Below the pieces are notes generated by a model. It ran no database searches, was not told the DNA's origin, and was given only the letters and a program-made list of their open reading frames with translations. Source: an uncultured Gammaproteobacteria bacterium (GTDB taxonomy: Bacteria; Patescibacteriota; Microgenomatia; Levybacterales; GWA1-39-11). From it: DNA of 33,302 bases. Made by a program: the position numbers and the translations under genes. The stretch spans positions 81,192-114,493 of the forward strand of contig CAYVFE010000002.1 of assembly GCA_964450885.1 (NCBI GenBank). The letters are read 5' to 3'. Shown in pieces: positions 4,660-12,997 of this stretch. Positions within the stretch are counted from its first letter, which is position 1. Each line of letters begins with the position of its first letter.

Positions 4660-5493
4660 ATGGAAATAAATGGCAAAAAACTTCAAGAGGATTTAGTCAG
4701 GAAGCTCAGCAGTGAAGTAAAAAGGCTTAAGGAAAAGGGTATTGATCCTTGCATTGCAATCGTCACTCTAGGCCCCGAAAAAAGCTGGGAAGCTTATGTC
4801 AAACAAAAGCTAAAGCTCGCTGAAAAACTCCACATCAAAGCAAGATTCATCAACTTAAGGCCTAAAACGACGGAGGAAGTTATCGAAATTGTCGAGAGTT
4901 TGAATAGAGATGAATCAGTGCACGGACTTATAGTTCAGAGACCTTTTCCGAATGAGATTGATACAGAAAGAGTTATTCAAAGTGTATCAAAAGATAAAGA
5001 TATCGATGGGTTTAGAAAGGATTCACAATTCGGTGTTCCAGCCTGGCTTGCTGTAAGATATATTCTCAGTCATATCGCCTCACTGCTAAATTTTTCCGAC
5101 CTACGATCCTTCCTGTCAGATAAGGCTATTCTCGTAATTGGAAAGGGTGGAACAGCAGGTCAGCCGACCATAGAGGGCCTCAAAGATCTAGGTTTTGAAC
5201 CGCAGGTAATAGATAGTAAAACTGTAGACAAGAAGCAGTTAATACGCGAAGCGGACATAATAATTTCTGCAGTCGGAAAGAAAAAAATAATTTCTGCAGA
5301 AAGTATAAAAGAGAAAAGTATCCTTATAGGAGTAGGGATCCATGGAGAAGATGGAAAGCTATTTGGTGACTTTGATGTAGAAGACATACAAAAGAAAGTG
5401 GCATTTTTTACTCCTACGCCGGGTGGGGTAGGACCGGTCAACCTGGCTTTTCTTTTTATGAATCTATTACAGGCTGTTAAAAATTCAGAATAG
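4660..5493 (+). CDS. folD: Bifunctional methylenetetrahydrofolate dehydrogenase/cyclohydrolase
   Basis: YVKQK (YxxxK), VHGLIVQRP, KDIDG, GDFD, TPTPGGVGP motifs. Confidence 0.92.
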   Translation: MEINGKKLQEDLVRKLSSEVKRLKEKGIDPCIAIVTLGPEKSWEAYVKQKLKLAEKLHIKARFINLRPKTTEEVIEIVESLNRDESVHGLIVQRPFPNEIDTERVIQSVSKDKDIDGFRKDSQFGVPAWLAVRYILSHIASLLNFSDLRSFLSDKAILVIGKGGTAGQPTIEGLKDLGFEPQVIDSKTVDKKQLIREADIIISAVGKKKIISAESIKEKSILIGVGIHGEDGKLFGDFDVEDIQKKVAFFTPTPGGVGPVNLAFLFMNLLQAVKNSE

Positions 5494-5496
5494 AGT

Positions 5497-6462
5497 ATGA
5501 AACGATTTGATCTAAAAGAGGAACTTAAAAGTCGCATAAAAAAAAGCGGGGGATTTACTAATTCGCACGCTCATATAGATCGTGCCTATACAGTAAATAA
5601 GGATAATTTCAAACTAATAAATGCTCCTCTGGAGCAAAAGTGGAACCTAAATGACGAATACAAAAAGAGTGTTACCGTCGTTAACCTATATGACAGGATG
5701 GCACGCGCAATAGAGATCATGCTCGACCAGAACGTCACCGCTCTGGGAACATTCATAGATGTCGATCCTCAGATAAAAGATAAATCGATAATGGCAGCCG
5801 AAAAAATCCGTAAAAAATATTCCAGACAGATCGAGATTAAATTCATAAATCAATGCCACAAAGGAGTTCTGGAAAGAGAGGCAAGTAAATGGTTTGCCTA
5901 TGGGGCGGATTTCGTCGATATCATAGGTGGACTTCCCAGAGCCGATATAGGCCGCGAAAAAGAGCACGTGCAGACACTTTTGCATACGGGGAAAAAGCTC
6001 AACAAGATGGTACACGTCCATGTAGACCAGCTAAACTCAGCTAAAGAAAAGGAGACCGAGCTTTTGGCAAAGCTGACGATAAAAAACAATATGCAGGGTA
6101 GAGTAGTCGCAATACACGGAATATCGATCGCAGCACATAAGAAAACTTATAGAAAAAAACTGTACTCGCTTATGAGGGAGGCAAAGCTTATGGCCATAGC
6201 TTGTCCGACGGCATGGATAGATAGCAGAAGAAGCGAGGAAATATCCCCTATCCATAATGCTCTAACTCCTGTCGATGAGATGATTGATGAAAAACTTACC
6301 GTAGCACTTGGGACAGATAATATAGCTGATATCTACAAACCTTTTTCTGATGGAGATATGTGGATAGAGCTTAGACTACTACTTGAGGGGTGCAGGATTT
6401 CGGATCTCGATAAATTGGTGAAGATAGCCAGTAAAAATGGGCGCAAGGTCCTGGGGCTATAG
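5497..6462 (+). CDS. Cytosine deaminase-like metal-dependent amidohydrolase
   Basis: HAHID metal motif, HVHVD, IHG and LGTDN in the order seen in CodA-type amidohydrolases; starts 3 nt after the folD stop. Substrate unknown. Confidence 0.85.
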   Translation: MKRFDLKEELKSRIKKSGGFTNSHAHIDRAYTVNKDNFKLINAPLEQKWNLNDEYKKSVTVVNLYDRMARAIEIMLDQNVTALGTFIDVDPQIKDKSIMAAEKIRKKYSRQIEIKFINQCHKGVLEREASKWFAYGADFVDIIGGLPRADIGREKEHVQTLLHTGKKLNKMVHVHVDQLNSAKEKETELLAKLTIKNNMQGRVVAIHGISIAAHKKTYRKKLYSLMREAKLMAIACPTAWIDSRRSEEISPIHNALTPVDEMIDEKLTVALGTDNIADIYKPFSDGDMWIELRLLLEGCRISDLDKLVKIASKNGRKVLGL

Positions 6463-6472
6463 TGGGCTATAG

Positions 6473-7288
6473 TCAAACGACTTCTTCTTCGAGGATTGCT
6501 GTTAGGCAGTGTGCGCCGCCGCCAGCCTTCATGAACTCCCTCAGATCGACTTCTATCGATCTATATCCAAGCGACTCCACTTTATCTTTAAAAGTAGGGA
6601 TGCCGCTTTGCATCACCACATGGTGATCGGTTGTTATGGAATTGGCAGCAAAATTCTCGACCTCAAAATCTTCAAAAGGGATAAGAAGCGGGATGTTAGC
6701 TTTCAATGCTTCCAGGGATTTTTTTGTAAAGGCTCTTGGATAGTAAAAAGCAATTCTGTCATTTAATGGGAAAAGTGCAGTATCTAGGTGAAAAAACCTC
6801 GGATCCTTTAGCGAGATAGGCACGACTTCTATCCCCAAAAATTTTTCGATAAATTTGCATGCGCGAATATTTGTCCTGAATCCTACACCTATAAAAATTT
6901 TATTATTGATAAACAAACTCTCACCGCTACCTTCAAATGTGATATCTTCCGGAAGAAAGAAAAATGTAAAATTTTTGTCTTCGAACCATTTTTTGTAAAA
7001 ATCGCGCTCTTTTTGTCTCTCCGGATATTTGAAATTACTGACAACGATCGAGTTATTGTAAAAAATGCCTTGATCTGTCGCAAAAACCATATCAGGAACA
7101 CCTTTAACTTGATCGATTATCTCGACCTCTATCGAGAGCCTTTTATAAACTTTTACAAGCTGGTTCCATTGAGAAAGTGCTTTTTGGCCATCAGCGGATC
7201 CTTTGACCATCCAAGGATTTATACTATAGTCGACGGAGAAGTATTTGGGCCGGCACATCAATACTTTTCTAACGATCTTTGTCTTCAT
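6473..7288 (-). CDS. Guanidino-group-modifying (amidinotransferase/DDAH/ArgZ-like) hydrolase
   Basis: VLMCRPKYFSVDYSINPWM, PDMVF, FEGSGE, FHLDT and GGGAHCLT give the Glu-His-Cys triad of the pentein fold; 4-bp ATGA overlap with the argG stop. Confidence 0.9.
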   Translation of the reverse strand: MKTKIVRKVLMCRPKYFSVDYSINPWMVKGSADGQKALSQWNQLVKVYKRLSIEVEIIDQVKGVPDMVFATDQGIFYNNSIVVSNFKYPERQKERDFYKKWFEDKNFTFFFLPEDITFEGSGESLFINNKIFIGVGFRTNIRACKFIEKFLGIEVVPISLKDPRFFHLDTALFPLNDRIAFYYPRAFTKKSLEALKANIPLLIPFEDFEVENFAANSITTDHHVVMQSGIPTFKDKVESLGYRSIEVDLREFMKAGGGAHCLTAILEEEVV

Positions 7289-8913
7289 TTACGATAGCCA
7301 AAATCGTCATAAAGCTTGTCGACGAATTGCTTTGCGACTCCCATAGTGGTTATGAGATGGGTGTTCGTCTTGATAGCAAAATCGCGGATGATATTTCTGT
7401 CTGTCTTTTCTTTTTCGTCTTCATCTTTCTTATTTTCGATACTGATTATAAAATCGAAGCGCTTTGAATCTAGCAAGTCCAGTAGGTTTGGTTTTTTGTG
7501 AGGTTGTGAGATCTTCTGAACCAGAATAGAAGGTATGCCATTTGATATCAGGAATTTGTGAGTCTTATACGTAGAGTAGAGCTTAAAACCGAGAGAATTC
7601 AACTTTTTAGCATATGACAGGAATTTTACTTTATTTGCTCTTTTTCCGATAGAAAGCAAAGCGGTTCTCTCGCTTCGCTGTGCAAGCCTCATCTGAAGAG
7701 TGTAGAGCTCTATAAATCCTGCCGAAGCATTCTGGTTAAAGGCATCTGACGACATGAACGTTGCCAGCTTTTCCTCAAAAATAGTATTTGGTGTCTGGAC
7801 TGCAACAGCCTCTGCCATACCTTTAAATAATCTTACCTTAACTGTACCCGTAACTTTCTGATTGATCTTATCGATAAAGGCATTTAGATCATCCATCAAA
7901 GGTTCGAGCCAAAAAGCACCATAGCAAAGATATGCCCATTTGGTGTCTACCTCTGATTTGAATTCGTTTTCCTGACGGGTACTAACATATTTCTCCAGGT
8001 TCTTATGGGCAGTTATTATTATCTCAGCAGCTGGTGCTTCATATATTCCGCGGACCTTTAATCCCACAACCCTGTCTTCTATGTGATGCGCTATTCCTAT
8101 TCCATGCTTTGCGCCTATTCTATTTAAAGTATCTATGATTTTTGCCAGCTTCATCGACTTCCCATTTACGCTTACAGGAATTCCTTTAACAAACTCAACC
8201 TCAACTATCTCAGCCTTATTCGGAGCTTTTTCGGGGAGAGTACAAACAAGCAGTATATTCTCGAGGGGTGGGACGAGAGCGGGATCCTCAACTTCGCCGC
8301 CTTCGGCCGTTACACCCCACATATTGTCATCATAAGAATAAAGTTTTTTTGCACTTTGTCTTACTTCGATTCCATGCTTTTTTGCATACTTAAGTTCTTC
8401 ATCGCGTCCCATCGCCCATTCGCGCACAGGTGCGATTATCTTTATGTCAGGATTTAGCGCAAGAGCAGTACCTTCGATCCTAACCTGATCATTTCCCTTA
8501 CCTGTACATCCATGAGCGATCGTGTCTGCGCCTTCTTCCATAGCGACACGAACTGCGATTTTTGCCAGAAGCGGACGGCCCAAAGGAGTGGACAAAAAAT
8601 ACCTTCCCTGATAAGAACCATTTGCCTTAATTCCTTTTGCGATATATTCCTCCGCGAATTCATCTTTCGCATCGACGACGACTGCTTTTATGGCTCCGAG
8701 CTTTAAAGCCTTTTTCTTTATTTGTTCGAGGTCATCGGTCTGCTGACCTATGTCTATCGTGAGTGCAATTATCTCTGCATCATATTCTTCTTTTATCCAC
8801 TTAAGCATTACTGATGTGTCCAATCCACCGGAGTAGAGAAGGACGACTTTCTTGATCTCGCCTTTCTTCCCTTCGTAGGAGGCTACTTTTACATATTTTC
8901 CGTTTTTTGCCAT
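7285..8913 (-). CDS. argG: Argininosuccinate synthase with C-terminal MGS-like (CarB-type) domain
   Basis: KVVLLYSGGLDTS, HGCTGKGNDQVR, YSYDDNMWG, GRG-equivalent GLKVRGIYEAP, FNQNASAGFI; extra ~127 aa from residue 416 resembles the MGS-like domain. Confidence 0.95.
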   Translation of the reverse strand: MAKNGKYVKVASYEGKKGEIKKVVLLYSGGLDTSVMLKWIKEEYDAEIIALTIDIGQQTDDLEQIKKKALKLGAIKAVVVDAKDEFAEEYIAKGIKANGSYQGRYFLSTPLGRPLLAKIAVRVAMEEGADTIAHGCTGKGNDQVRIEGTALALNPDIKIIAPVREWAMGRDEELKYAKKHGIEVRQSAKKLYSYDDNMWGVTAEGGEVEDPALVPPLENILLVCTLPEKAPNKAEIVEVEFVKGIPVSVNGKSMKLAKIIDTLNRIGAKHGIGIAHHIEDRVVGLKVRGIYEAPAAEIIITAHKNLEKYVSTRQENEFKSEVDTKWAYLCYGAFWLEPLMDDLNAFIDKINQKVTGTVKVRLFKGMAEAVAVQTPNTIFEEKLATFMSSDAFNQNASAGFIELYTLQMRLAQRSERTALLSIGKRANKVKFLSYAKKLNSLGFKLYSTYKTHKFLISNGIPSILVQKISQPHKKPNLLDLLDSKRFDFIISIENKKDEDEKEKTDRNIIRDFAIKTNTHLITTMGVAKQFVDKLYDDFGYRK

Positions 8914-10798: not shown

Positions 10799-10808
10799 AG
10801 AGCAGAGT

Positions 10809-10831
10809 AGTATTATTGTGCGACATAATTA
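10809..10831. repeat. 23-bp exact direct repeat (copy 1; spacer plus right arm of the palindromic site)
   Basis: AGTATTATTGTGCGACATAATTA is identical at 10809-10831 and 11503-11525. Confidence 0.95.
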
Positions 10832-10860
10832 GTATGCACATCTTTGTACCAAAATGTCAA
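10831..10860 (-). promoter_or_regulatory. Putative sigma70 promoter of the xer gene
   Basis: Minus strand TTGACA (10860-10855), 18 nt, CATACT (10836-10831), about 32 nt upstream of the ATG. Confidence 0.6.
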
Positions 10861-10949
10861 CGGCGTGCAGAAATAAGCCTAAGTGGTTTTTGCGATTAAC
10901 AGCAGTTAAGTTGTAAAAGGCACAAAACATATATAGGAAAACCTTCTAG

Positions 10950-10963
10950 ATTGTGCGACATAA
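10950..10963. repeat. Isolated half-site (14 bp)
   Basis: ATTGTGCGACATAA matches the arm in the other two copies. Confidence 0.85.
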
Positions 10964-10988
10964 ATATTCACGGTGATATAATTACTTT

Positions 10989-11201
10989 ATGAGTCCTGAA
11001 TTACATCCTGTCGTTATGATCAAATCCGCTTGGAAATACCTTTCAAATCGCGATCAAAAACTTATGAGGTTCTATAATTCCAATTTCGTCAACAGTCCCA
11101 TAAGTGATTCGCAGATAGATACCGATTTGCTTATTAAAGACGACGCCGTAACACAAGATATTGAAAGAAATACCCAAAATCCTGATAACACATCCCAGTA
11201 A
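10989..11201 (+). CDS. Possible small hypothetical protein (70 aa)
   Basis: ORF only; no RBS or motif; lies between the repeat copies. Confidence 0.3.
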   Translation: MSPELHPVVMIKSAWKYLSNRDQKLMRFYNSNFVNSPISDSQIDTDLLIKDDAVTQDIERNTQNPDNTSQ

Positions 11202-11490
11202 TATTTGAGCTCATATACAACGCACGAGGATGCGATTTAAGGCCCCTGAAATAATTTAAAGCACTACATACACCTATTAAATAAAGTCTTATATTCCCCA
11301 AAACTTAAACTACGTTCATTTGAATTCATATTTATCCTATAGTAGGGTAGTGTCCTTATAATTACATCCTTTGAACAAAGAGAATATTGCAAGCGATCAA
11401 CTAGCGGAAAGGTAAAGCTAAATCAATAAACATTAAAAAGGAAATTTTGCGTATTTGAGTAAATATAGCCACACTCTCGGCATGTCAGGT

Positions 11491-11522
11491 TTATGTCGTA
11501 AAAGTATTATTGTGCGACATAA
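11491..11522. other. Candidate tyrosine-recombinase crossover (dif-like) site, 13-6-13
   Basis: TTATGTCGTAAAA-GTATTA-TTGTGCGACATAA; arms are 11/13 inverted-identical with a 6-bp spacer, 0.7 kb from the xer gene. Confidence 0.65.
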
Positions 11523-12196
11523 TTATATACCACCCCCCCCAGCCTAGGGCAGGACGAATATATGTCATCTTCCACCTCTTGGTTATATTGCAAGAAAAAT
11601 TAAAAACTTTAGATGGCTTATTTGATCTCAATTAGCACTTCTCTCGTAAAAGAGTCAGGACTCTTAAATGCGGTATTTAGTGCTATTTAGCTTATGAATA
11701 CGGTAAAAACGTCAATTTTAGCCTCAAAACGAGGCTTATTTATCAACGTCCTTACGCTCTTTTGGAGCGGTTTAGAGCCTAAAATCAACAAAAACAATAG
11801 TTTTAGCTTCAAATGTTCGAGATTTGTTCGCTTTTTTTTCATTTTCAGGTCTATACTTGGAACTACAAGCAAGGCTATATCACCCTTAATCCAAGGTAGT
11901 GCTTAACTTTAATTATCTTAAGAAACCATTTGCATTCTACCAGATAAACCATATCAGCCTCTACCGTTAGAGGGCGAGATATCCGTGAAAAGACAGTACT
12001 TAACCTCGTGAAACTATAAGTCCCTTTTTACCTAGACGATCTGACTTAAATGACTTAAAATAATTATTATAGGATATAATTATAGGATGTTAAAATGCAT
12101 GTATCAAACTATATCATTTGAATCTAATTATTGCACTCTTCTACTCCGTCTTCCTGCCATCAAAAAATTATAATGAGAATAAAATTAGATTAAAAG

Positions 12197-12997
12197 CTAA
12201 ACTCCCCATTGGGAAAAAACTACAAGGAATAAAACAGAAATGAACCCGACCCATATATATTCCCAAAGGATACCTTTAAAGAGCCTGCGCTCAAGCCAGG
12301 CATGAACCAGCCCCGAGTAGGTATAAAATATTCCTGTTAAAAAAAGCGCATATACAGCTGCATTTACAGGCCAAAGGATCATTACGATAGCAAGCTGCAT
12401 GAGCGAGAAAGAGATTACAAATGACGAAATAAAGATTTCTTTAGCCTGTGATTTATTAAGACTGTATGACCAAAGGCTCTCAAAGTTCATGAATAAAGAC
12501 ACCAGGAAAACAATAACCGGAGGCATAAAGTAAAGCTGCCTTAATGAAAAAGCAAAGTTAAATAAGAAAAACAGAACCAAAAGCGTCAAGATGAATGACA
12601 CGATCCTCGCGCTCCTAAGCAGATTTATCGTCCTGATTCCTGAGACCGCAAAAATATTTTGCGTGAGAAACAATGAATAAAGCCCAAAGGCATATAAAGA
12701 CGTAATTATTATCTGAGAAATCAATCTATCAGGCACCAAAGAGTAGAAAAAAGGAAATGAAAGTGAAAAGAAAAACGGCAGGACAAGAATCGGATAAAAG
12801 AAAGTCCCCTTCACGTCTTTCCTAAGTATAAAAAACAACAGAAGATCGGTAAGAACTGCAAGAATCAAAGTCCCGACAAAAAGTCTTAGATCGGTGAGGA
12901 ATTGAAGGAAGAAAAAAAGCAATGAGAGAACCATCACCGACAGGACCAGTCTTTGTCTTTTATTTAGGCTCAGTAATTGCTGAAGTTTCTTTATCAC
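12197..12997 (-). CDS. Polytopic membrane protein of unknown function (CPR-type)
   Basis: About 8 hydrophobic segments; GTG start 2 nt after the yebC stop. Confidence 0.85.
   Translation of the reverse strand: MIKKLQQLLSLNKRQRLVLSVMVLSLLFFFLQFLTDLRLFVGTLILAVLTDLLLFFILRKDVKGTFFYPILVLPFFFSLSFPFFYSLVPDRLISQIIITSLYAFGLYSLFLTQNIFAVSGIRTINLLRSARIVSFILTLLVLFFLFNFAFSLRQLYFMPPVIVFLVSLFMNFESLWSYSLNKSQAKEIFISSFVISFSLMQLAIVMILWPVNAAVYALFLTGIFYTYSGLVHAWLERRLFKGILWEYIWVGFISVLFLVVFSQWGV

Follow-up and report, generated by a model that had tools for sequence, protein, structure and literature searches.

De novo pyrimidine synthesis is regarded as highly invariant and runs through carbamoyl-phosphate synthetase (CPSase), aspartate transcarbamoylase (ATCase), dihydroorotase, dihydroorotate dehydrogenase, orotate phosphoribosyltransferase and orotidine monophosphate decarboxylase. 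The C-terminal domain of the large CPSase subunit, CarB, binds uridine or inosine monophosphate (UMP/IMP) and additionally ornithine at its interface, and the C-terminal methylglyoxal synthase-like (MGS) domain of the human enzyme CPS1 is an N-acetylglutamate site. Pyrimidine enzymes are also known as multi-enzyme fusions in CAD and URA2; to our knowledge, argininosuccinate synthase (ArgG) has never been described within an assembly of this type. Here, we analyze an ArgG that is fused to a CarB-type MGS domain (ArgG-MGS) and encoded in a stretch of 33,302 nucleotides, in the following called the window (assembly GCA_964450885.1, contig CAYVFE010000002.1, positions 81,192 to 114,493), that is labeled as an uncultured Gammaproteobacteria bacterium with a GTDB lineage in the Levybacterales of the Patescibacteriota.

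The fusion gene and its parts are located as follows:

7285..8913, minus strand: ArgG-MGS fusion gene, a single open reading frame (ORF) of 542 amino acids plus stop codon, with domain calls by Pfam and NCBIfam.
7669..8913, minus strand: argininosuccinate synthase core, amino acids 1-415, comprising the HUP ATP-pyrophosphatase domain, the synthetase domain and the C-terminal arm (NF001770, TIGR00032, phmmer against 1J1Z).
7669..7785, minus strand: ArgG C-terminal arm and junction, amino acids 377-415, a low-confidence linker in the monomer model.
7288..7668, minus strand: CarB-type MGS-like (allosteric-type) domain, amino acids 416-542, 127 residues (PF02142, profiles of CarB C-termini, PDB matches, AF2 and Foldseek).
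7348-7623, minus strand: Pfam MGS match within this tail, amino acids 431-522 (PF02142).

An initial annotation from sequence alone had described ArgG followed by a 127-residue in-frame extension at 7285-7668, which is exactly amino acids 416-542 plus the stop codon. Direct reading of the DNA across the ArgG/MGS junction (...MRLAQRSERTALLSIGKR...) reveals no stop and no frameshift, and the profile of the ArgG equivalog NF001770 (519 bits, cut-off 334) ends at amino acid 415; TIGR00032, the argininosuccinate synthase family, scores 467.8 bits (cut-off 268.2). Both domains of the suspected architecture were found by Pfam on the whole protein, with 227.6 bits for Arginosuc_synth (PF00764) at amino acids 22-183, 228.6 bits for Arginosuc_syn_C (PF20979) at 192-410, and 44.5 bits for MGS (PF02142, gathering score 24.1) at 431-522. 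Searched by itself, the tail matches PF02142 with 47.3 bits (E 2.4e-12) over model positions 2-94 of 94, and its further NCBIfam matches are CarB C-termini only (PRK05294, positions 939-1045 of 1058, E ~4e-12) plus a weak partial one to PurH. The alignment to the allosteric domain of CarB that had been made by eye was correct according to Pfam, NCBIfam, PDB searches and Foldseek alike. The fusion is real, with a match far above chance, and a database protein on a 186-kb contig (P0011) is a 100% match to it.

The ArgG core aligns end to end with Thermus thermophilus ArgG (1J1Z; phmmer E 5e-105, amino acids 22-416), and its YSGGLDTS motif at amino acids 27-34 falls on 1J1Z residues 7-14. For the citrulline and aspartate contacts, we take the T. 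thermophilus residues to be Y84, T116, N120, D121, R124, S173, S182, E258 and Y270. In 76-77 of 77 fusions, the SGGLDTS motif is kept together with the equivalents of Y84, T116, N120, D121, R124, S173 and E258 (the Y, N, D, R, S and E invariant in 77/77 and the T present in 76/77), and the equivalents of S182 and Y270 are T or S and Y or F, respectively. Because these substrate residues are conserved, the core should be catalytically ordinary and make argininosuccinate.

The tail was modeled by AlphaFold2 (AF2) with a mean predicted local distance difference test score (pLDDT) of 86.9, and strands and helices alternate in the model as they do in the MGS fold, with a predicted five-stranded parallel alpha/beta arrangement. 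When this model was compared to the PDB with Foldseek, the allosteric domains of CPS1 and E. coli CarB ranked first (template modeling (TM) scores 0.70-0.80, E 3e-8 to 3e-6), and methylglyoxal synthases (TM 0.65-0.69) and PurH came after them. Sequence searches of the PDB gave the same order of relatives, with the CPS1 MGS domain 2YVQ at the top (E 1e-7, or 4e-11 with the family profile) and residues 944-1044 of E. coli CarB next. In the AF2 monomer of the full-length protein (pLDDT 81), two confident bodies are connected by the low-confidence ArgG C-terminal arm at amino acids 377-413, where pLDDT drops below 50 at positions 377-387, 398-400 and 405-413.

To determine the distribution of the fusion, the tail profile was run against a single genome from each GTDB species. 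It matched 99 stretches, and 80 of them were retained as loci; in all 80 of these species-level loci, the tail is in frame with ArgG. Carriers of the fusion include the complete or near-complete genomes CP066689.1, OZ246394.1, OY969576.1, OY970322.1, OY970292.1, MFJV01000001.1 and DCTC01000001.1. The best 120 homologue clusters, drawn from NCBI, JGI, ENA and Logan, show 72-87% identity at lengths of 531-572 amino acids and all consist of ArgG plus MGS. A search with the tail alone additionally recovered more divergent tails (52-61%), and ArgG sequence precedes each of them wherever fragment length allows. The fusion had been noted as an architecture not known to be described, and in the literature library searched, we likewise found no paper on it, on the PRK06886 family or on an argininosuccinate-based route to pyrimidines; yet it is common in public data, where homologues that bear a name are called only "argininosuccinate synthase" and come from Patescibacteria, Microgenomates or Roizmanbacteria. 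Compared to the window protein, 77 full-length proteins are 70-82% identical in the core and 50-62% in the tail. Nei-Gojobori dN/dS ratios, which are rough values as dS is saturated in most species pairs, lie at 0.01-0.06 in the tail and 0.02-0.05 in the core where computable; purifying selection thus acts on both parts with roughly equal strength. The tail also shares 28-40% identity with the C-termini of CarB proteins from the same loci, which makes an ancient acquisition of the 3' end of carB plausible.

The organism labels of the 80 loci comprise Roizman-, Davies-, Levy- and Gottesmanbacteria, Saccharimonadia/Saccharibacteria and "Patescibacteria group". Other records are labeled as uncultured Gammaproteobacteria, Chlamydiae, Limisphaerales, Sulfotelmatobacter or Acidiferrales (L009, L011, L013 and around 35 more; L044, L070, L074, L083), and the genes next to their fusions resemble genes of candidate phyla. 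Their fusions are 76-99% identical to those under Patescibacteria labels, and the deviating labels are probably errors of labeling or binning. Two loci carry irregular copies: in L001 (~4900-6654, P0010), ArgG is present as two ORFs of 312 and 217 amino acids, the latter with the MGS tail, and may be a split gene or pseudogene, and in L002 (708-2339), the fusion is fragmented by frameshifts, on a long-read contig of only 2x coverage.

To place the ligand pocket of CarB on the tail, correspondences were taken from a HMMER alignment to E. coli CarB (1BXR) and a MAFFT alignment with CarB from the same loci:

7348..7632, minus strand: predicted nucleotide-phosphate site overall.
7630-7632, minus strand: K428 (tail K13), aligned with CarB K954.
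7570-7572, minus strand: T448 (tail T33), aligned with CarB T974.
7561-7563, minus strand: T451 (tail T36), aligned with CarB T977.
7513-7515, minus strand: K467 (tail K52), aligned with CarB K993.
7441-7443, minus strand: S491 (tail position 76), aligned with CarB N1015.
7399-7401, minus strand: D505 (tail D90), aligned with CarB D1025.
7348-7350, minus strand: T522 (tail T107), aligned with CarB T1042.

From the IMP complex 1CE8, K954 and T974 are presumably phosphate contacts. All 77 fusions retain the equivalents of K954, T974, T977, K993, D1025 and T1042 without exception; at the N1015 position, 73/77 have N and the window protein has S, and the S948 equivalent is variably S, A or T. In CPSase, T977 and K993 are crucial for UMP binding and inhibition, S948F removes sensitivity to UMP and IMP, and T1042 contacts ornithine (PMC6245113). 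The ornithine-site residue T522 is invariant among the fusions as well, although Pfam finds no counterpart in the fusion protein to the carbamoyl-phosphate domain that completes this site in CarB. At the K993 position, the fusions and bacterial CarB have Lys where human CPS1 has Trp, and a nucleotide-type ligand is for this reason more likely here than N-acetylglutamate.

The main point, which the initial annotation had missed, is the unexpected pyrimidine-gene context of the fusion. ORFs of all loci were labeled by BLAST and clustering, and representatives were annotated by Pfam, NCBIfam and PDB searches. In the window, the fusion gene has two partners:

6473..7288, minus strand: ArgZ-like gene ("GME"), encoding a guanidino-group-modifying enzyme of 271 amino acids that resembles the arginine dihydrolase ArgZ/AgrE and DDAH (PDB and NCBIfam).
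7285..7288, minus strand: ATGA stop/start overlap of the fusion gene and the downstream ArgZ-like gene (direct sequence reading).
5497..6462, plus strand: AMH, encoding a PRK06886-type amidohydrolase of 321 amino acids (NCBIfam NF005365 and PDB).

The ATGA overlap suggests translational coupling of the fusion gene and the ArgZ-like gene, judging from its sequence. The best PDB match of the ArgZ-like protein is 6JV0 (Sll1336/ArgZ, E 6e-58), and its scores for DDAH-Mtb (249 bits) and Arg_dihydro (229.5 bits) are both under the NCBIfam cut-offs. AMH scores 447.5 bits for NF005365 (cut-off 340), a family that NCBIfam names "hypothetical protein", and matches cytosine deaminase 4R7W (E 4e-16) and AtzC 2QT3 (E 2.5e-10) in the PDB. 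Its metal motifs (HxH/H/H/D) are conserved, and where CodA has its catalytic Glu217, AMH proteins mostly have Gln. We also considered AMH as a dihydroorotase and rejected this assignment, given that no PyrC model matched, that the protein is CodA/AtzC-like and that it occurs together with a true PyrC in 5 loci.

Across the 80 loci, AMH accompanies the fusion most consistently (64/80), followed by PyrD (52/80), PyrF (40/80), PyrE (39/80) and the ArgZ-like enzyme (31/80), and at least one of PyrD, PyrE and PyrF is encoded in 58/80. The gene directly downstream of the fusion is AMH in 33 loci and ArgZ-like in 31, together 64/80. Downstream sequence of 5 kb or more is available for 54 loci, and 49 of these contain pyrD, pyrE or pyrF; likewise, 49 loci have pyrD, pyrE or pyrF in the absence of carA, carB, pyrB and pyrC within 20 kb. 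Typical operons read ArgG-MGS, AMH, PyrD, PyrE, PyrF in L018 and L023, and ArgG-MGS, ArgZ-like, AMH, PyrD, PyrF, PyrE in L064. In two species, AMH and PyrD are fused into one protein (L049 11298-13511 and L066 11251-13398; Amidohydro_1 at 23-341 and DHO_dh at 464-700), and uridine kinase, phosphoribosyl pyrophosphate synthase and PurA are frequent neighbors. In around 10 loci, true PyrB (TIGR00670, 311-345 bits), PyrC, CarA and CarB follow ArgG-MGS and AMH, and OTCase genes are found in 2/80. Genes nearby with an "OTCace" label had been candidates for ornithine transcarbamylases (OTCases) of a catalytic ornithine cycle, which was rejected when NCBIfam identified 7 of them as ATCase (PyrB) and 2-3 as OTCase.

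In four loci (L015, L039, L051, L069), AMH and PyrD directly after ArgG-MGS are replaced by a gene pair that is followed by PyrE (e.g., L051 10384-11754 and 11758-13023). One gene of this pair encodes an 8-oxoguanine-deaminase-like amidohydrolase (446 bits, under its cut-off) and the other a protein of 416-454 amino acids with only a near-threshold radical-SAM match (27.9 bits). Flavoproteins of the fumarate-reductase/succinate-dehydrogenase type were seen in two further loci, fused to dihydroorotase in a pyrimidine cluster in L001 (1-1918) and as a TfrA-like gene between ArgG-MGS and PyrC in L010 (4304-5944).

The relationship to the canonical genes is visible at one chromosomal slot, which we compared using the contexts of two Levy-like PyrB proteins together with tblastn of the genes flanking the module in the window. 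On one side, this slot is flanked by ppa-gyrA-folD, and its other border is CAP and/or xerC, with identities to the window of 60-63% for GyrA, 63-64% for XerC and 49% for CAP. Its content is as follows:

Window: AMH, ArgZ-like, ArgG-MGS.
L049 and L066: ArgG-MGS, ArgZ-like, AMH-PyrD, PyrF, PyrE.
L095 and L096: PyrB, CarA, x, CarB.
L092-L094: PyrB, CarA, CarB, PyrC, PyrD, PyrF, PyrE.
L067: both modules plus ArgH.

This pattern is as expected for the substitution of one module by another. Directly upstream of pyrB in L092 (7835-9908) and L094 (154-2227), we further noticed a pyridoxal phosphate-dependent enzyme (PALP) and an arginase-family gene, another link of arginine and pyrimidine genes at this slot. 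Elsewhere in the window, Rfam detected two tRNAs only, and around 1.4 kb between xerC and a DUF5656 membrane protein (10800-12200, with a lower G+C of ~0.36) is free of ORFs >70 amino acids and of Rfam matches.

An exhaustive profile search found the same MGS subtype also on PyrC, PyrD, AsnRS-like enzymes and CarB, all of them encoded in pyrimidine clusters and with pocket residues conserved in all of these copies. A short-type PyrC carries it at the C-terminus and is followed by PyrD (P0141; L089 6165-7640), it forms the N-terminus of PyrD in P0149, and it is placed between a class II core resembling asparaginyl-tRNA synthetase (AsnRS) or archaeal AsnA and PyrD, with or without a phosphoribosyltransferase (PRTase) domain, in P0138, P0169, L005 and L021. 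The ArgG tail is 37-44% identical to these AsnRS-like-linked copies. Loci with AsnRS/AsnA-like-MGS genes (L005 10589-13090, L021 11380-12870, L028 5561-7054, L042, L047 and L090 1744-5148, the latter encoding P0138) are organized as pyrimidine operons in which the core lacks an anticodon domain and the MGS is often also joined to PyrD and a PRTase-like domain. This fusion could catalyze an ATP-dependent ring-closure step via a beta-aspartyl-adenylate. Several of the PyrC-MGS and MGS-PyrD operons are preceded by a gene for a CBS-domain protein.

How could these observations be connected? ArgG appears to have permanently gained the C-terminal MGS-like domain of the large CPSase subunit and to have been recruited to a pyrimidine module of ArgG-MGS, an optional ArgZ-like enzyme, AMH, PyrD, PyrE and PyrF. 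The domain would most likely bind a nucleoside monophosphate of the UMP/IMP type, and the signal could be relayed via the ArgG C-terminal arm to tune ArgG activity. By sequence comparison, we lean slightly towards the MGS domain being an allosteric sensor of such a ligand that provides end-product control of the module's entry enzyme as in CarB. The pyrimidine context would then explain why this entry enzyme carries the very sensor that CarB carries in the canonical pathway. Of the two explanations proposed in the initial annotation, an allosterically regulated ArgG is favored, given that the fusion family keeps without variation those CarB residues that are linked to the binding of UMP/IMP. 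A relic of an argG-carB deletion, understood as a recent accident, is not supported.

A bolder and more tentative proposal, to which we give somewhat less than an even chance, is that ArgG-MGS and AMH, with or without the ArgZ-like enzyme, constitute a route to dihydroorotate without carbamoyl phosphate or ATCase that replaces CarAB-PyrB-PyrC non-orthologously. Citrulline would be imported or made from arginine by the ArgZ-like enzyme, and ArgG would condense it with aspartate to argininosuccinate. AMH would then hydrolyze the guanidino carbon at the bond to ornithine N-delta, displacing ornithine and possibly proceeding via a cyclic anhydride, and the resulting carbamoyl-aspartate or dihydroorotate would be passed on to PyrD, PyrE and PyrF, with the CarB-derived MGS domain lending UMP-type feedback to the entry step. 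The known AMH relatives CodA and AtzC hydrolyze exocyclic or N-alkyl amines off amidine- or guanidine-type ring carbons. Support for an AMH-driven bypass comes from the fit of this chemistry and from the four loci that swap AMH for an 8-oxoguanine-deaminase-like amidohydrolase. It is further supported by argininosuccinate forming cyclic anhydrides so readily that these are measured routinely (PMC11016166) and by the ArgZ-like enzyme as a potential source of citrulline from arginine.

Several observations weigh against this picture of a regulated ArgG at the head of a pyrimidine module. Gene neighborhood is association and not regulation, and no pyrD, pyrE or pyrF is encoded within the 33-kb window itself. 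Since any of CarA, CarB, PyrB and PyrC is encoded in 12/80 loci and ArgH in 4/80, ArgG may simply serve arginine synthesis in these cases. No confident docking of the MGS domain onto ArgG is seen in the full-length AF2 monomer. The equivalent of CarB T1017 is P in 69/77 fusions and E in the window protein, which reads SIEN at 7435-7443 (amino acids 491-493) as opposed to NIP(T/S) in 69-73 of 77 relatives. This SIEN/NIPT segment aligns with N1015 and T1017, the presumed ribose contacts of CarB, and ligand binding by the window copy may be different or weaker. Finally, ligand specificity in the MGS fold can drift, given that the closest solved sequence homologue of the tail is the human CPS1 domain with its N-acetylglutamate site and not a nucleotide binder.

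The most conventional of the rival explanations holds that ArgG-MGS is an ordinary arginine-biosynthetic ArgG that lies near pyrimidine genes solely on account of the carbamoyl phosphate common to the two pathways, with an MGS domain that balances arginine against pyrimidine synthesis and an amidohydrolase unrelated to ArgG chemistry. It would be in line with the canonical core, with argH adjacent to the fusion in L031 and L067 and near it in L083 and L028, with a true OTCase in L083, L086 and L002, with carAB, pyrB or pyrC beside the fusion in around 12 loci and with canonical PyrB being common among related Patescibacteria. We nevertheless consider it unlikely: argH and OTCase genes (4/80 and 2/80) are scarce compared to AMH and pyrD/E/F (64/80 and 58/80), the 49 loci with pyrD/E/F and no canonical early genes in 20 kb do not fit, and neither do the AMH-PyrD fusions of two species nor the exchange of the ArgG module and the pyrB-carAB module at the same slot. 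Patescibacteria moreover generally lack amino acid biosynthesis. A quite improbable alternative for the MGS domain itself is a structural role in which MGS-MGS contacts, comparable to those of the allosteric domains within the CarB tetramer, tether ArgG, PyrC, PyrD, the AsnRS-like enzymes and CarB into a multi-enzyme complex for channeling. That one domain subtype is found on five enzymes of one pathway in N-terminal, C-terminal or internal position, and that it comes after the oligomerization arm of ArgG, would suit a scaffold, for which the strict invariance of nucleotide-phosphate pocket residues would be unexpected if this were its only function; the roles of scaffold and sensor are compatible and not mutually exclusive.

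Even less probable is a fumarate-supply cycle in which ArgG-MGS, ArgH and an arginine-to-citrulline hydrolase (ArgZ-like or AMH) convert aspartate to fumarate until high UMP stops the cycle through the MGS domain. In organisms that have no TCA cycle, class 1A dihydroorotate dehydrogenase passes its electrons to fumarate, PyrK being the mark of class 1B, and PyrD of L018 reaches 326.6 bits (cut-off 301) for the class 1A "dihydroorotate oxidase"; the fumarate-reductase-type flavoproteins in or fused to pyrimidine genes of L010 and L001 and the homology of the ArgZ-like protein to the enzyme of the cyanobacterial ornithine-ammonia cycle point in the same direction. The required argH is seldom nearby, however (the same 4/80), many PyrD homologues are divergent and some loci encode PyrK, and neither the replacement of pyrB-carAB-pyrC at one slot nor the AMH-PyrD fusions would be explained. 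For an artefact or remnant, be it an assembly chimera, a two-gene read-through or a decaying argG-carB deletion relic, one could invoke the unusual architecture, the seemingly split P0010 of L001 and the frameshifted copy of L002, though the latter is on that 2x long-read contig. We give this practically no credence: a chimera, originally named as what would refute the fusion, is excluded by independent assemblies from NCBI, JGI, ENA and Logan that carry it, and a relic or recent deletion by the occurrence of the architecture in 80 or more species genomes and over 120 protein clusters, with a continuous frame, a confident fold and purifying selection on the tail (dN/dS ~0.01-0.06) like that on the core. 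Equally negligible is the probability of a bifunctional protein with a catalytic tail. The MGS-like fold, the TM scores of MgsA structures and the PurH match would allow for methylglyoxal synthase or IMP cyclohydrolase activity, but no MgsA family model in NCBIfam matches the tail at E<=1, the match to PurH covers only residues 2-55 (E 6e-4) and thus under half of the domain, and CarB and CPS1 are closer in both sequence and structure; this assignment was therefore rejected.

Returning to the sensor and the bypass readings, what makes the locus worth studying is that, in a large and poorly understood bacterial radiation, an enzyme of the urea cycle heads pyrimidine genes and carries the feedback sensor of CPSase, and that many genomes appear to have lost carAB-pyrB-pyrC from the fusion locus. 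Should the regulatory reading be true, the fusion would be a clean natural case of one enzyme's allosteric domain being transferred to another, and ArgG would be controlled in a new way. Should the pathway reading be true, arginine or citrulline would be a newly recognized starting point for building the pyrimidine ring, which would account for nucleotide synthesis in episymbionts that scavenge arginine and would change metabolic reconstructions of Patescibacteria, as scoring by KEGG modules would count such genomes as lacking pyrimidine synthesis.

Among the known systems, the allosteric domain of CarB (E. coli residues 933-1073) is the closest in that it shares PF02142 and the five-stranded alpha/beta fold as best profile and structural match, the equivalents of K954, T974, T977, K993, N1015 (in the family), D1025 and T1042, and the position at the C-terminus of an ATP-using pathway-entry enzyme. 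In the fusions, however, this domain is attached to ArgG, an N-type ATP pyrophosphatase, instead of an ATP-grasp synthetase, is only ~25-28% identical to E. coli CarB, has T1017 replaced by Pro, and lacks a counterpart to the ornithine-site residues from the carbamoyl-phosphate domain. Canonical type-1 ArgG (1J1Z, ~400 amino acids) corresponds to the fusion over the entire core, including ATP, citrulline and aspartate residues and scores above the equivalog cut-offs, but has neither the 127-residue C-terminal domain nor the pyrimidine rather than arg gene context. The MGS domain of human CPS1 (2YVQ, 5DOU) is the closest solved sequence homologue and top structural match (TM 0.80) and differs by its Trp at the K993 position, where the fusions have Lys. 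With CAD and URA2, the loci share the principle of fused pathway enzymes with a regulatory element on the entry enzyme, although the partners are others, as the counterpart fusions here are PyrC-MGS, MGS-PyrD, AMH-PyrD and AsnRS-like-MGS-PyrD-PRTase. The cyanobacterial ornithine-ammonia cycle similarly couples ArgG to an enzyme of the ArgZ family (ArgZ/AgrE), whereas the ArgZ-like enzyme of the window has no ornithine cyclodeaminase domain and no cyanophycin context, and the partners of ArgG are an amidohydrolase and pyrD/E/F. The fusion is a new variant of a known enzyme. The pathway, provided that it exists, would represent a novel type of entry to pyrimidine synthesis.

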